Positions 33,353-47,938 of a DNA stretch of 64,000 nucleotides are shown here, one piece after another. The translations under genes were made by a program, and so were the position numbers. The notes beneath the pieces are model-generated. The model did no database searches. It saw nothing but the letters and a program-made list of their open reading frames with translations, and was not told where the DNA came from. The stretch is from Dictyostelium discoideum (taxonomy: Eukaryota), in the NCBI GenBank assembly GCA_000004695.1, contig CM000150.2:3680001-3744000 (forward strand), read 5' to 3'. The stretch's first letter is position 1, and each line of letters opens with the position of its first letter.

Positions 33353-36300
33353 TTAATTATTATTATTATTATTATTATTATTATTATTATTATTATTATT
33401 ATTATTATTATTATTATTATTATTATTATTATTATTATTTTTATTATTATCACAGTCACTATCATTAATATTATTATTATTATCATCATGATCATCATTA
33501 TTATTATTATTATTATTATTATTATTATTATTATTATTATTATTATTATTATTATTATTATTATTTTTATTTTTTTTTTTATTTTTTTTATCTTTATCAT
33601 ATATAATATTATTTATATCATATTTTTTTAATAAGTGTTTTAAATATTTTGATAAATAATCAAATGTTGGTCTTTGTGAAGGATTTTTACTCCAACAACG
33701 TGTAACAATATCAGATATATCAGTATCTTTAAAAATTTCTTGATCTAAAGAAGGTCTTTCATTTTTAAGTACTAATTCTCTTATTCTCCAGTGTGGCTCC
33801 GAATAATATGGTATTCTTTCTGAAAATAATTCATAACAGAGCATGCCAAACGAGTAAATATCAGTTGATTTAGTGTAAGAACCTTGTGATAGAATTTCAT
33901 TACTCATATATGCAACAGTACCTCTTCTAGTTTGAAGATTATATCTTTCATTGGTTTCTTTTGAAAATGGTATTAAAAAATAAAATAAAATAAATTAGAA
34001 TCATCAAACTAAAAATTAATAAATAATAAATAAACATACCTTTACTTGTACCGAAATCTGATACCTTTGCACAAACTAAAGATTTTGGATTCAAAGAAGT
34101 AATTAATATATTCTCTGGTTTTAAATCTCTATGAGTAATACCATTTCTGTGAAGATATGCACATGCTTTTGAAATATCAATTAAAATTCTATAAAAAAAA
34201 AAAAAGAGTTAATATTATTTCAAATCTTTTTTTAAAAAAAAAAAAAAAAAAAAACTTACCTAATTTTTTGAATAATTGTTATTTTATACTTATTTTCATG
34301 AATATATTTACTTAAACAACCTTTTGAACAATAATCTGTTACAATACCATGAATACCAGAAAAAATAAATCTACCCACATATAATAGTATATTTGGATGT
34401 CTTAATCTTTCTAAAAGTGAAATTTCTTTTTCAATTTCATCATGATCAACATATTCATTTTTAAGTAATTTAACTGCAACTGGTGATGATCTCCAAATAC
34501 CACGATAAACTATACCAAATGTACCTTCTGAAATATAGTTTTTAATTATAATTTCATTAAAATCTATTATATTAGTTAATTCACTCTCTAAACGAAGGAA
34601 AACAAATGTTGACCATGATTGCTTTACATCCAATGTTTCAAATCGAACTATTACTTTTTCATTATACTATATATTATAGTTAGTATAATAATAATAATAA
34701 TTTTTTTTTTTTTTTTTTTTTTTTTTTTTTTTTTTTTTTTTTTTTTTTTTTTTTTTTAAAAAAATAATTACCTTTGTAGTTGAAAATAAAGTAACTGATA
34801 ATGAAATTGAAGTTTCAACATTTGGTTTTAATTCAATAGATTGAAAAGGTGAACTTGTTATTGAACTATCATCACCTTCTGGGAATAAAAATAATGCATA
34901 TAATGGTTCACTTAACTTATTTTTAAAAGTGATAGTATCATGACAAACTTCACCAAGATCGGATTTTCTACCATTCATTCCAAAATCACAAATATATGGT
35001 GATACTGATACAGGTAAATCTGGATCATTACAATGTTGGAATATTGTATCTGCAATTAAAACATGTGTTTGAGTATTGGTTCTATATTTACCACTTTGTC
35101 CATTTCTATTTTTATAAGTTTTTAAATAATGTTCTAATGGTATTTCATTGGTAACAGGGTCAAGTAAAATATCAATAATATTTAAAGGATTTTCAATAAA
35201 ATCACCATGAGCTAATGATGGAACTAAATGAGGACTTGGTATTTTACTTTTTTTATACTCGAAAAATTCTTGATCAAAAGTATTTCTTTCAAATTGTCTA
35301 ACAAATAATTCACCCTCTGCTTCAATTTTAATATTTCCACCTCGTATAATATTAATATAATCTTCAACATCATCTTCATTTAATTCTGCACCATCACTTG
35401 AATCATCATATTCATCACTATAATCTTCAAAAAATGGTTCATTATTATTTATAATTGGTTTAATTTCTAAATTTTCCATTTCTAATGTTACATTTGTTTG
35501 TAATATTGCTCCTGCTGCTGTTGTTGTTGTTGTTGTTGTTGTTTCTACTGTGGTTGGTTCTAAATTATTATTTTCTGATTGTGTTTGAATATCAGAATTT
35601 CTATTTACTGTTATTGATATATGATTTGATGATGATTGTTCTTGATTTGAATTTATAATTAATGGTGTTGATGGTACTGGTGATTTATTATTTGATGGTT
35701 TCTTTGAATATAGTTCAACACCAAAAACAGCTATTTCAAGTCTTCTTCTTTTTTTATGTTTATAATATCTGGCACCAAAGAATACAATTAATATGGATAA
35801 TAAAACAAGTACTGTAACACAAATTGGAACAATTATTGGTAATAGATTTATTTTTTCAACTGGTATTGGATATTCAATTACAAGTGATGAATAAATTGCC
35901 ATTGATGTTAAGTATGTATTACCTCTTGTTGCAAATGAAATATTTATATTTTCCAATGAGTTGATATTATCGAAATTGAATGTTAAATTTTTGAAAATTG
36001 GTGCTGAATTACTCTCTAATGGTTCCAATAAGAATACTGGTTGATTTTCAATATAAATTGATAATGGTGTTGGTTGATCATCAATTGGTTGATGTATAAA
36101 AAATAATTGAATTTGATAATACTTTGTTTCACTATCAATTCTTGTTGTTATAGTTACTAATTCATTTGAATTAATTGATGTTATACCATTTAAAAATAAT
36201 TCATTAAGGTCATTTGATATATTTAATTTTGGTAAATTTGTTATATATTTTATATTATTTGAAATTGTACAATTATTGCTATTATCATTACTACTAATAC

Positions 36301-46300: not shown

Positions 46301-47938
46301 GCGTATTGTTGACCAAAGAAAGAATCACCATTTGAGTTTATATTTGGTGAAATTGAATAAATACCATTACCTTGATTACCATAATCCATATTATTATTAT
46401 TATTATTATTATTATTATTATTATTATTATTATTATTATTATTATTATTATTATTATTATTATTATTATTATTATTATTATTATTATTGTTATTATTATT
46501 ATTATTTTGATCAACATCCAACGAAGCCGTATCGATTTTTACAAGTATATAAGAATTGTTTGAAGATTGAATTGACTCTGTACCATATTGAGCGATTATA
46601 TTTGAACCTGATTTACTCGAAATTAAACTGTTTGATATTATTACATTTGAATCAAATAAAACCAATGGTGATCTTGTCAGATTGTCTTCAAAAAATGCAC
46701 AACCATCTATTGTAACATTTTTTGAGAATTCAATATACAACGAGCTTCTGAATCTTTGGTTTGTTCCCATTATTATATCAGTAACTTGATTCGGATCATT
46801 TGGAGAGAATATTAACTTTGTATCATTATAGGGTTCATTTGTGGTGAAACCTAGATTTTTAAAAAACATATTTTTAAAATATACATTTGAATCACCTGTT
46901 ATATAAATTGACCCTTTGGTTGTTTTCCCCTTCTTTAAGATATTTGTTGGAGAGACATTCTGATCTCTGTCAACTTCAATTAATACTCTGATGATTTTGT
47001 CATTCTCTGATATTGGTAGGCAATCTAATAATGAAAGAATCTTTCTTTCTAAATCTGAACTAAAACTACAATAAAATCCTAGAGGATATAATTCTGTAAA
47101 TATTCTAATAGTCTGATTAATTTTATTCATTGGTGAAAATGGTGGACTTATCTCTATCGATGAATTACTAATACGGTCTGCTCTATATACTAATGATTCT
47201 TTCGCAACTACTGAAATTGTACCACCCAATACAAGAATACCTGGAAAGAACCCAAAAGGATCCTTTGGGAAATCTGGATTATTATAAATGTGTAGGGGAT
47301 CATTTTCGTCATAAAACTCTATTCCTGCTTCACTTTCAAATCTTCCGCCAGGAAGAATAATTAAAGAATTAATAGTAAAAAACATACTACCTTTGACAGT
47401 AAAGCTCCCCTCAACGCACACAGCAACGAAATTGTAGGTTGTACCAAGAGATTCTGACTTGAATAATAATGATGAATCTATATTAATAAATTTATAGTTA
47501 GTTATTTATAATAATAATAATAATAATAATAATAATAATAATAATAATAAAAACTACTTTTTTGGATGTAAATACTATTAGGCCCATCTGAGTTGAAACC
47601 TGGAAAAAGAAAAGGGAAAAACTCATCAACCCCAGGAATAATATCATTTCTAAGTGCATTTCTGCAAACATCAGGGTAATATAAATCTGTATCTTGAGAT
47701 GATTGATATTCTGTAATATGTGGATACCTTTTGTGACGTGTTAAATTATAATATCCAGGAGGGGTTCTAATTAAATCTTCTAAAAATGATTATTTAAATA
47801 TTAAAATAAGTAAAATTTTTTTTTTTTTTTTTTTTTTTTTTTTTATAGAGACAAAGAAAAAATATTACCTTCTGCAAATAAAAAGCTAAAACAAAATATT
47901 ATTATTGTTATTAATTTAATTAAGATTTTATTTATCAT
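43386..47938 (-). CDS. gdt-like receptor (paralog C) with degenerate kinase-like domain; join(47938..47869,47779..47558,47477..44875,44795..44709,44639..44547,44460..44141,44027..43882,43810..43386)
   Basis: Eight exons. Donors GTAATA, GTAGTT, GTGAGT, GTAAGT, GTAAGT, GTAAGT, GTAAGC. Exon 1 MINKILIKLITIIIFCFSFLFAE (signal peptide). Exons 1-3 are colinear with exons 1-3 of the paralog at 33353-38689. Exon 3 holds the extracellular domain with a 44-residue poly-Asn tract, a (PTET)n stalk and TM LPICLSLALLIGIIIMICIF. Exons 4-8 encode a kinase-like domain lacking the Gly loop (FKGYYRDLAVAVKKF), with HGD instead of HRD and no APE motif, so a pseudokinase is likely. Intron positions differ from the paralog at 33353-38689 (two extra introns). 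Confidence 0.65.
46372..46500. repeat. perfect (AAT)n/(ATT)n trinucleotide array of about 43 units, translated in frame as poly-Asn within exon 3 of the gdt-like gene at 43386-47938
   Basis: attattatt... is uninterrupted from about 46372 to 46500. Similar arrays occur at 20103-20175 (MCMBP), 33334-33600 (C-terminal tail of the gdt-like gene at 33353-38689) and 23580-24180 (zinc-finger gene). Confidence 0.85.

Follow-up and report, generated by a model that had tools for sequence, protein, structure and literature searches.

A 64,000-nucleotide (nt) stretch of Dictyostelium discoideum AX4 chromosome 1 (GenBank contig CM000150.2, positions 3,680,001 to 3,744,000; hereafter the window, in whose coordinates all positions are given unless stated) was analysed for a cluster of three genes, comprising gdt2, DDB_G0269850 and gdt8. 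The main new observation is a recurrent arrangement, in which a gdt gene encoding a receptor with a canonical kinase lies head-to-head with a gene of the DDB_G0269850 family, both in the window and at further loci within and beyond the D. discoideum complex. Profile and fold comparisons additionally showed that the gdt ectodomain consists of a G8 plus right-handed beta-helix module of the CEMIP/TMEM2 type, followed by one or more beta-sandwich domains resembling carbohydrate-binding modules. DDB_G0269850, as judged from sequence comparison, represents a separate, dictyostelid-wide family that is homologous to gdt at the G8/beta-helix module only.

Gene models were built with GT..AG introns of 69–113 nt only and yielded, after splicing, three uninterrupted reading frames, at the coordinates and on the strands given in an earlier note on this DNA. 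The gdt2 gene (Gdt2, DDB0220631; 33353–38689, minus strand) comprises six exons (38689–38623, 38541–38314, 38229–34772, 34666–34260, 34188–34040 and 33957–33353) and encodes 1637 amino acids (aa). The middle gene, DDB_G0269850 (Q55CZ0/XP_646341.1; 39484–42655, plus strand), consists of two exons (39484–39538 and 39630–42655) encoding 1026 aa, and gdt8 (Gdt8, DDB0220636; 43386–47938, minus strand) of eight (47938–47869, 47779–47558, 47477–44875, 44795–44709, 44639–44547, 44460–44141, 44027–43882 and 43810–43386) encoding 1321 aa. The outer genes, previously described as gdt-like, are literally gdt2 and gdt8, two members of the GDT family (Gdt1, Gdt2, Gdt4, Gdt6, Gdt8 and Gdt9; Goldberg et al. 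2006, PMC1420674). The N-terminal ~400 aa of the Gdt2 model and ~500 aa of the Gdt8 model were identical to the entries in Table S2 of that paper, across the exon 1/2/3 junctions. These entries span ~400–500 aa only, and the 3' splice choices were checked against the kinase-domain alignment of the same paper alone (Figure S1), in which the Gdt2 and Gdt8 segments agree with the downstream splice junctions of the models. An exact look-up matched the middle-gene model residue for residue to XP_646341.1/Q55CZ0, annotated as "hypothetical protein DDB_G0269850". The same protein collection contained no exact match to the full-length Gdt2 and Gdt8 models, though DDB_G0269850 from the same genome was matched, and Gdt2 itself was missing from the results of a homology search with its ectodomain, in which the top match was 45% identical. 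Either the deposited sequences depart from the present models somewhere beyond residue ~500, or the entries are absent from the collection.

The window was compared with its orthologous locus L005, with loci L001 (gdt4-type), L002, and L004 and L006 (gdt9-type, orthologous to each other), and with loci from D. purpureum (L003), Acytostelium subglobosum (L007), Cavenderia fasciculata and Heterostelium album. A gdt gene was found head-to-head with, and directly upstream of, a member of the DDB_G0269850 family (hereafter the middle family) in the window, L001, L002, L004, L005, L006, L003 from D. purpureum and L007 from A. subglobosum. At the loci of the D. discoideum complex, the gdt gene is on the minus strand and the middle-family gene on the plus strand. 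The spacing of the pair is 0.5–1.6 kb between called genes overall and 0.7–1.5 kb in the D. discoideum complex, with the exception of L002 from D. cf. discoideum, where a DDE_1 transposase gene (8335–9673 of that locus) is inserted between the upstream gdt and the G8-protein gene. In the window, the start codons of gdt2 and DDB_G0269850 are separated by 794 bp (38690–39483), a divergent intergenic region that constitutes a candidate bidirectional promoter. Within it, ~150 bp beside the DDB_G0269850 start codon (39294–39450) are less AT-rich and 76% identical to L005, and the remainder is low-complexity A/T sequence; this conserved block may be a promoter element. Comparison of promoter regions across loci was dominated by AT-rich low-complexity matches, and only the ~150-bp conservation between the orthologous loci was left after filtering.

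A second gdt gene follows the middle-family gene downstream in tail-to-tail orientation in the window, L005, L001 and L002, with a kinase-less gdt copy intervening in L001; in the window, the convergent intergenic region between DDB_G0269850 and gdt8 spans 42656–43385. The order of kinase, kinase-less protein of the glycosylphosphatidylinositol (GPI) type and degenerate kinase had been correctly recognised in the window, and it recurs at two further paralogous loci, which brings the number of triads in the D. discoideum complex to three. The head-to-head pair is likewise retained at the gdt9-type loci, in D. purpureum and in A. subglobosum. The remaining neighbours vary among paralogous loci and species, and the orthologous pairs of loci (window/L005 and L004/L006) retain theirs. 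A generalisation of the pairing to all dictyostelids was considered and rejected on the evidence of C. fasciculata and H. album.

In neighbour-joining trees, which were computed without support values, the upstream gdt proteins and the downstream gdt proteins formed two clades of three branches each that mirror the middle-family tree, with the gdt9 pair, D. purpureum and Acytostelium progressively outside. This pattern fits an ancestral pair of one gdt and one G8-protein gene, to which a second gdt was added, followed by duplication of the triad as a block. The kinase type follows the position of the gene. Every upstream gdt is canonical (glycine loop, VAxK, HRDLKPxN and DFG), whereas every downstream gdt is degenerate: the Gdt8 clade lacks the glycine loop and carries HGD, the Gdt6 orthologue carries VVLR and NCNIKSNN, and the downstream gdt of L002 lacks the glycine loop and carries HRDLKLDN.

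The three genes had been proposed to share a paralogous ectodomain of 790–1150 aa. This applies to Gdt2 and Gdt8, whose ectodomains are strongly paralogous (BLASTP E = 2e-57 and 3e-54), but not to the middle protein, which is related over about one third of the length and at superfamily distance. DDB_G0269850 matched Gdt2 and Gdt8 by BLASTP at E = 7e-4 and 0.017, respectively. Profile–profile comparison with hhalign, in which 16 gdt ectodomains were aligned with 19 middle-family members, returned a colinear alignment of 348 columns with 24% identity and a probability of 93% (E = 3e-7), and a second run gave 90% (E = 2e-6). The aligned parts, of ~350–390 aa, correspond to residues 97–461 of Gdt2 and 117–502 of DDB_G0269850. 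A dedicated test of the C-terminal ~450 aa of the gdt ectodomains against those of the middle family yielded nothing significant (E ~0.1); a weak colinear match between these C-terminal parts, obtained in the first profile run (E = 0.15), failed to reproduce.

The nature of the common module emerged from a search of 1.84 billion representative proteins with a HMMER profile of the middle family, which retrieved full-length relatives and then dozens of proteins matching only positions ~105–435. Proteins with G8 and CEMIP_beta-hel domains were found by this profile at E = 4e-13 to 1e-3. Ten remote matches were scanned, all of which contained Pfam G8 and seven also CEMIP_beta-hel; some remote G8 matches additionally bear bacterial Ig-like, dockerin or peptidoglycan-binding domains. 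A reference alignment of 27 G8/CEMIP_beta-hel proteins was then compared by hhalign with the middle family (E = 7e-25) and the gdt ectodomain (E = 4e-18, 99% probability); the reference proteins had been selected because they resemble the middle family, which leaves the gdt score as the only unbiased one. Neither family matched the other nearly as well as it matched these bacterial-type G8 proteins. Direct BLASTP comparison in a small database also linked Gdt2 and Gdt8 to the G8 proteins (E = 3e-9 to 7e-4). The Pfam models G8 (PF10162) and CEMIP_beta-hel (PF24606) had no match on the three ectodomains or on the proteins P0042, P0005 and P0017, even at E = 10, so that the G8 assignment is founded on profile and fold evidence. 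The module has the right-handed parallel beta-helix fold, and a Foldseek search with the model of the Gdt2 ectodomain returned beta-sandwiches of the CBM6/35 (carbohydrate-binding module) and malectin-like types, as well as tailspikes. The middle-family profile found no match among Protein Data Bank (PDB) sequences at E = 1. On the DNA, the module extends over 37142–38320 on the minus strand in gdt2 (residues ~97–461; delimited by hhalign against the G8 set and the middle family) and 39923–41080 on the plus strand in DDB_G0269850 (residues ~117–502). In gdt8, it was placed by alignment with Gdt2 and the D. cf. discoideum Gdt8 orthologue P0018 at 46261–47567 on the minus strand (residues ~95–503, including a poly-Asn insert).

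DDB_G0269850, of ~1000 aa, comprises a signal peptide, the G8/beta-helix module, a family-specific region of ~450 aa, a Ser/Thr-rich stalk and a hydrophobic C-terminal tail. Its N-terminus reads MKNLYSFVVLALLVLFMG/DSNSQ. The stalk (PTPTPSSGGAVETSSKSTTSSGSTE...), followed by the small residues NAASS, a short spacer and the terminal hydrophobic tail TLFYLIFFYFIIYFFL, was located by inspection at 42479–42652 on the plus strand. The protein ends in ...GLNAASSVLSSK-TLFYLIFFYFIIYFFL, in a stretch with 43% Ser/Thr and a hydrophobic tail of 15–16 aa that reaches the last residue, in agreement with the Ser-rich stalk and kinase-less hydrophobic end that had been described for it. A signal peptide, small residues suitable as omega site, a polar spacer and a terminal hydrophobic stretch are all present, as judged by inspection, and with this layout of a GPI-attachment signal the protein is probably GPI-anchored. 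A Pfam scan found no kinase domain, and there is no transmembrane segment with a cytoplasmic part.

The D. discoideum complex has four paralogues of the middle family, the others being 59, 56–57 and 54% identical to DDB_G0269850. A D. purpureum member, labelled "G8 domain-containing protein" in UniRef, is 47% identical, and more members were found in H. album, C. fasciculata, A. subglobosum and Synstelium polycarpum. Full-length members have ~950–1100 aa, and most possess a signal peptide and a C-terminal hydrophobic tail. Identities are 46–83% within Dictyostelium and about 25–28% in other genera; the retention of a frame of ~1000 codons at such identities argues that DDB_G0269850 is a real gene under constraint. 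Of note, the D. cf. discoideum protein P0043 (ACTFIY_011529, 1901 aa) contains two complete tandem ectodomains of the DDB_G0269850 type in one frame, which represents either a true fusion or merged gene calls.

Both outer genes encode receptor kinases with a single membrane pass, which belong to GDT, a Dictyostelium-specific family of the TKL group. Like the family in general, Gdt2 and Gdt8 combine a signal peptide, the "gdt_ex" ectodomain, a single transmembrane segment and a TKL kinase at the C-terminus. The conserved gdt_ex domain is present along the whole length in both, minus ~180 aa in AX4 Gdt8, and the Gdt2 ectodomain is 37–45% identical to family members over 85–98% of the query, with two partial matches covering 75% and 28%. 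Hydrophobic segments at residues 4–22 and 897–915 of Gdt2, and 5–23 and 785–803 of Gdt8, correspond to the signal peptide and the single transmembrane segment that had been predicted for the outer genes. The Gdt2 segment (35780–35836, minus strand; Kyte–Doolittle mean 3.21 over 19 aa) is followed by the basic stop-transfer sequence YYKHKKRRR. In Gdt8, the segment found by hydrophobicity scan (LPICLSLALLIGIIIMICI; 45361–45417, minus strand) is preceded by a (PTET)n stalk.

The predicted kinase domains were likewise borne out by Pfam, both matching PK_Tyr_Ser-Thr. That of Gdt2 (33629–34570, minus strand; E = 8e-53) contains two introns and displays every canonical motif, namely the glycine-rich loop (SEGTFG), the VAIK Lys, the alphaC Glu, the HRD Asp, the catalytic-loop Asn and DFG; it is listed as "kd, a" in the kinome paper (PMC1420674). 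The Gdt8 domain (43485–44460, minus strand; E = 2e-45) matched from profile position 15. Its glycine-rich loop (GxGxxG) is lost, with IASYLPSKVYVFKG in its place, and HRD is replaced by HGD, but the Lys (AVAVKK), the alphaC Glu (KNEVQIL), the Asp and Asn (HGDIKPDN) and DFG are kept. Gdt8 had been called a pseudokinase, a label that captures the degenerate loop and HGD and is otherwise too strong, since a protein retaining all catalytic residues except the glycine-rich loop may still be active; the kinome paper records it as "partial kd, aq, lacks G52", not as inactive (PMC1420674). The degenerate loop is also found in the orthologues P0018, P0014 and P0011. A PDB sequence search placed the TKL kinases TNNI3K, CTR1, TAK1, B-Raf and Roco4 among the nearest solved structures to the gdt kinases; the search with the gdt alignment gave kinases only, because that alignment took in the kinase domains.

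The AX4 Gdt8 ectodomain differs from those of P0018 and Gdt2 by an in-frame internal deletion of ~180 aa, as revealed by three-way alignment, with highly conserved flanks. The deleted region belongs to the middle of the ectodomain, where both Gdt2 and the D. cf. discoideum orthologue retain it. The junction (...GNKTISTYL/VCNSII/EYYSGW...) lies at 46075–46128 on the minus strand, and BLASTP breakpoints against P0018, P0014 and P0011 were concordant. In addition, exon 3 encodes a poly-Asn insert of ~40 residues (46375–46512) relative to P0018 and Gdt2.

The explanation that we regard as best overall, with a probability of about 0.55, accounts jointly for the gene identities, the architecture, the conserved pair, a shared promoter and joint action at the cell surface. 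Under this reading, a gdt with a canonical kinase and a head-to-head G8 surface protein would form an old, retained unit, to which a gdt with a degenerate kinase would have been added downstream before the whole triad was duplicated as a block. Because the pair is old and has been kept, it is proposed that one promoter region serves both the G8-protein gene and the neighbouring gdt, and that the two proteins act together at the surface. Transcribed from that shared region, the G8 protein could serve as a lipid-anchored partner in binding, presenting or processing an extracellular cue of glycan-like or polyanionic nature, the kind of ligand that the beta-helix fold suggests. Gdt2 would transduce this cue and thereby restrain the growth-to-differentiation transition, and Gdt8 would be a low-activity modulator. 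A role of DDB_G0269850 as partner or co-receptor is plausible, and the conserved head-to-head pairing makes it more so.

This proposal can be set beside what has been published on the family. The shared gdt ectodomain is presumed to sense ligands indicative of incipient starvation (PMC1420674), and Gdt2 is a negative regulator of the growth-to-differentiation transition (as cited in PMC1420674 and PMC8262924). Sensitivity to extracellular polyphosphate is reduced in gdt2, gdt1/gdt2 and gdt4 mutants (PMC8262924). A more specific version, which we consider rather unlikely as a whole, would be a two- or three-component surface receptor composed of the active kinase, the lipid-anchored partner and the degenerate-kinase modulator, whose beta-helices would bind a linear glycan or polyanion reporting cell density or nutrients; in view of these mutants, extracellular polyphosphate would be one candidate. 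If true, the GDT ligand and mechanism would become directly testable, and the divergent gene pair would represent a rare eukaryotic genomic unit of receptor and co-receptor.

The main rival, a reasonably likely one despite falling short of even odds, is linkage without function, in which DDB_G0269850 would be an independent surface or secreted beta-helix protein that binds or cleaves glycans (e.g. bacterial, matrix or cell-wall polysaccharides). Its gene would have stood next to an ancestral gdt by chance and been copied together with it in each block duplication. This is a fold characteristic of polysaccharide lyases, hydrolases, epimerases and phage depolymerases; as many beta-helix proteins are enzymes, an independent enzymatic role is as compatible with the fold as a partnership with Gdt2. 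The company that the remote G8/CEMIP_beta-hel homologues keep, with their bacterial Ig-like, dockerin or peptidoglycan-binding domains, points the same way. The pairing is absent in C. fasciculata, where the upstream kinase is a cytoplasmic ARM-type TKL kinase without a gdt ectodomain, and loosened in H. album, where the nearest gdt-like gene is found ~7 kb away on the downstream side, beyond three other genes. Moreover, block duplication alone accounts for the D. discoideum triads, which do not count as three separate events, and only the cross-species cases argue for selection on adjacency. Further points that weaken the proposed surface partnership are the moderate quality of the AlphaFold2 models (mean predicted local distance difference test score, pLDDT, of 58–60, and 58 for the Gdt2 ectodomain), with poorly predicted C-terminal halves, the fact that the GPI anchor was assigned by sequence inspection, and that no paper in the literature searched mentions DDB_G0269850. 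Against passive linkage, the adjacency persists in A. subglobosum and D. purpureum, as well as at four paralogous loci in the D. discoideum complex, while the neighbours differ; orientation and short spacing are kept everywhere in this set but L002, and the head-to-head partner is always of the canonical-kinase type.

Two other readings concern single genes of the cluster. The earlier note had envisaged the middle gene as a kinase-less version of the same ectodomain, suited to a decoy or co-receptor between two signalling versions, a model under which it would bind the same ligand. Its position between two gdt genes, a homologous colinear N-terminal module and a signal-peptide exon that ends in phase 1, as in the gdt genes, are in its favour, and true kinase-less gdt copies do exist elsewhere (P0005, P0012, P0015, P0019, P0021 and DDB_G0285895). 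The latter, however, are 37–45% identical to Gdt2 over the whole ectodomain, unlike DDB_G0269850, whose identity is ~24% over ~350 aa only and whose C-terminal ~450 aa of ectodomain have no detectable homology to gdt. Both families are also far closer to bacterial-type G8 proteins than to each other (the gdt score being the unbiased one), and the middle family is distinct and old, with members in Heterostelium, Cavenderia, Acytostelium and Synstelium, rather than a recent gdt derivative. DDB_G0269850 is not a kinase-less gdt copy but a distant relative that shares the G8/beta-helix module only; since the two ectodomains are not the same, a decoy of this kind is improbable. As to gdt8, it might be a decaying AX4 gene rather than one encoding a working receptor, given the ~180-aa deletion and ~40-residue poly-Asn insert relative to P0018, the absent glycine-rich loop and an activity rated questionable in the kinome paper (PMC1420674). 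We consider this unlikely: the frame is intact across eight exons with consensus splice sites throughout, the kinase and cytoplasmic region are 86% identical to the D. cf. discoideum orthologue, and none of the catalytic Lys, Glu, Asp, Asn and DFG has been lost. Conservation of the degenerate loop across the whole Gdt8 clade argues for constraint, not decay.

Several known systems offer points of comparison. DDB_G0269850 departs from the GDT family in having no transmembrane segment and kinase and in matching only the first ~350–390 aa of gdt_ex, at ~24% identity. Relative to other G8/CEMIP-type proteins (CEMIP/KIAA1199, TMEM2/CEMIP2, PKHD1 and many bacterial ones), the proteins studied here have no GG domains and possess family-specific C-terminal parts. 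To our knowledge, neither the fusion to a TKL kinase seen in gdt nor the GPI-type signal seen in DDB_G0269850 is a feature of animal G8 proteins. Pairs of a receptor kinase and a GPI-anchored co-receptor are exemplified by plant FERONIA with LORELEI/LLG1 and vertebrate RET with GFRalpha. The proposed arrangement would resemble these in associating a single-pass receptor kinase with a lipid-anchored extracellular partner, and the modelled beta-sandwich of Gdt2 matches, at the level of the fold, the malectin-like ectodomains that ANX2 and its relatives among plant receptor kinases possess. The gdt and G8 proteins share a homologous module, whereas the plant and vertebrate partners do not, and we know of no head-to-head gene linkage in the FERONIA/LORELEI or RET/GFRalpha systems. 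There is no evidence of common ancestry of the gdt/G8 pair with either of them, and the likeness is one of analogy only. By a similar analogy, each triad, with its canonical gdt and degenerate-kinase paralogue, may be likened to EGFR/ErbB3, a receptor pair of an active and a degenerate kinase, with the difference that Gdt8 retains its catalytic residues except for the glycine-rich loop and may be active.

As gdt2 and gdt8 are already known and named, the gene cluster as such is ordinary. The additions made here, i.e. the G8 nature of the gdt ectodomain and the conserved pairing, are modest and testable, and the literature searched contained no paper on either. The G8/beta-helix module and the sandwiches resembling carbohydrate-binding modules point to a glycan-like or polyanionic ligand for GDT receptors. 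As the middle family is kept head-to-head with a canonical-kinase gdt, both through block duplications and in distantly related dictyostelids, GDT signalling gains concrete partner candidates in DDB_G0269850 and its three paralogues.

With respect to exon structure, the earlier description was accurate for the 5' ends: exon 1 is small (67, 55 and 70 nt in gdt2, DDB_G0269850 and gdt8, respectively) and ends in phase 1 in each gene, and exon 2 of the outer genes contains 76 codons in gdt2 and 74 in gdt8, against the ~75 aa expected. The cytoplasmic parts contain three introns in gdt2 and five in gdt8, as had been counted, but the accompanying claim that the intron positions differ did not hold. 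Each of the three gdt2 introns has a gdt8 counterpart at the homologous position and in the same phase: a phase-0 intron follows TTK, a phase-2 intron falls within QKI[R]/QKV[K] and a phase-1 intron follows DFGxS[K/E]. The difference consists of two extra gdt8 introns, not shifted positions. On the coding strand, a homopolymer of ~60 A was noted in gdt2 intron 3 (34690–34765) and one of ~75 T in gdt8 intron 6 (44060–44135).

The window has a G+C content of ~13–32%, which is typical for Dictyostelium, and contains no tRNA genes. Its other genes, at 20239–21813, 21971–25246 and 31642–32130, include a homologue of the MCM-binding protein (Pfam MCM_bind, E = 6e-125), a large C2H2 zinc-finger protein and an acyltransferase fragment upstream of gdt2; an acyltransferase gene is also the neighbour at L005. 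Just past gdt8, a fragment of 129 aa (48354–48743, minus strand) matches the last third of the ERAP1_C domain only (Pfam E = 9e-24), and ~3 kb further there is a complete M1 aminopeptidase gene (Peptidase_M1_N, Peptidase_M1 and ERAP1_C; 51170–54083, plus strand). The fragment resembles a partial duplicate, and a gene containing ERAP1_C only was called at the corresponding position of L005.

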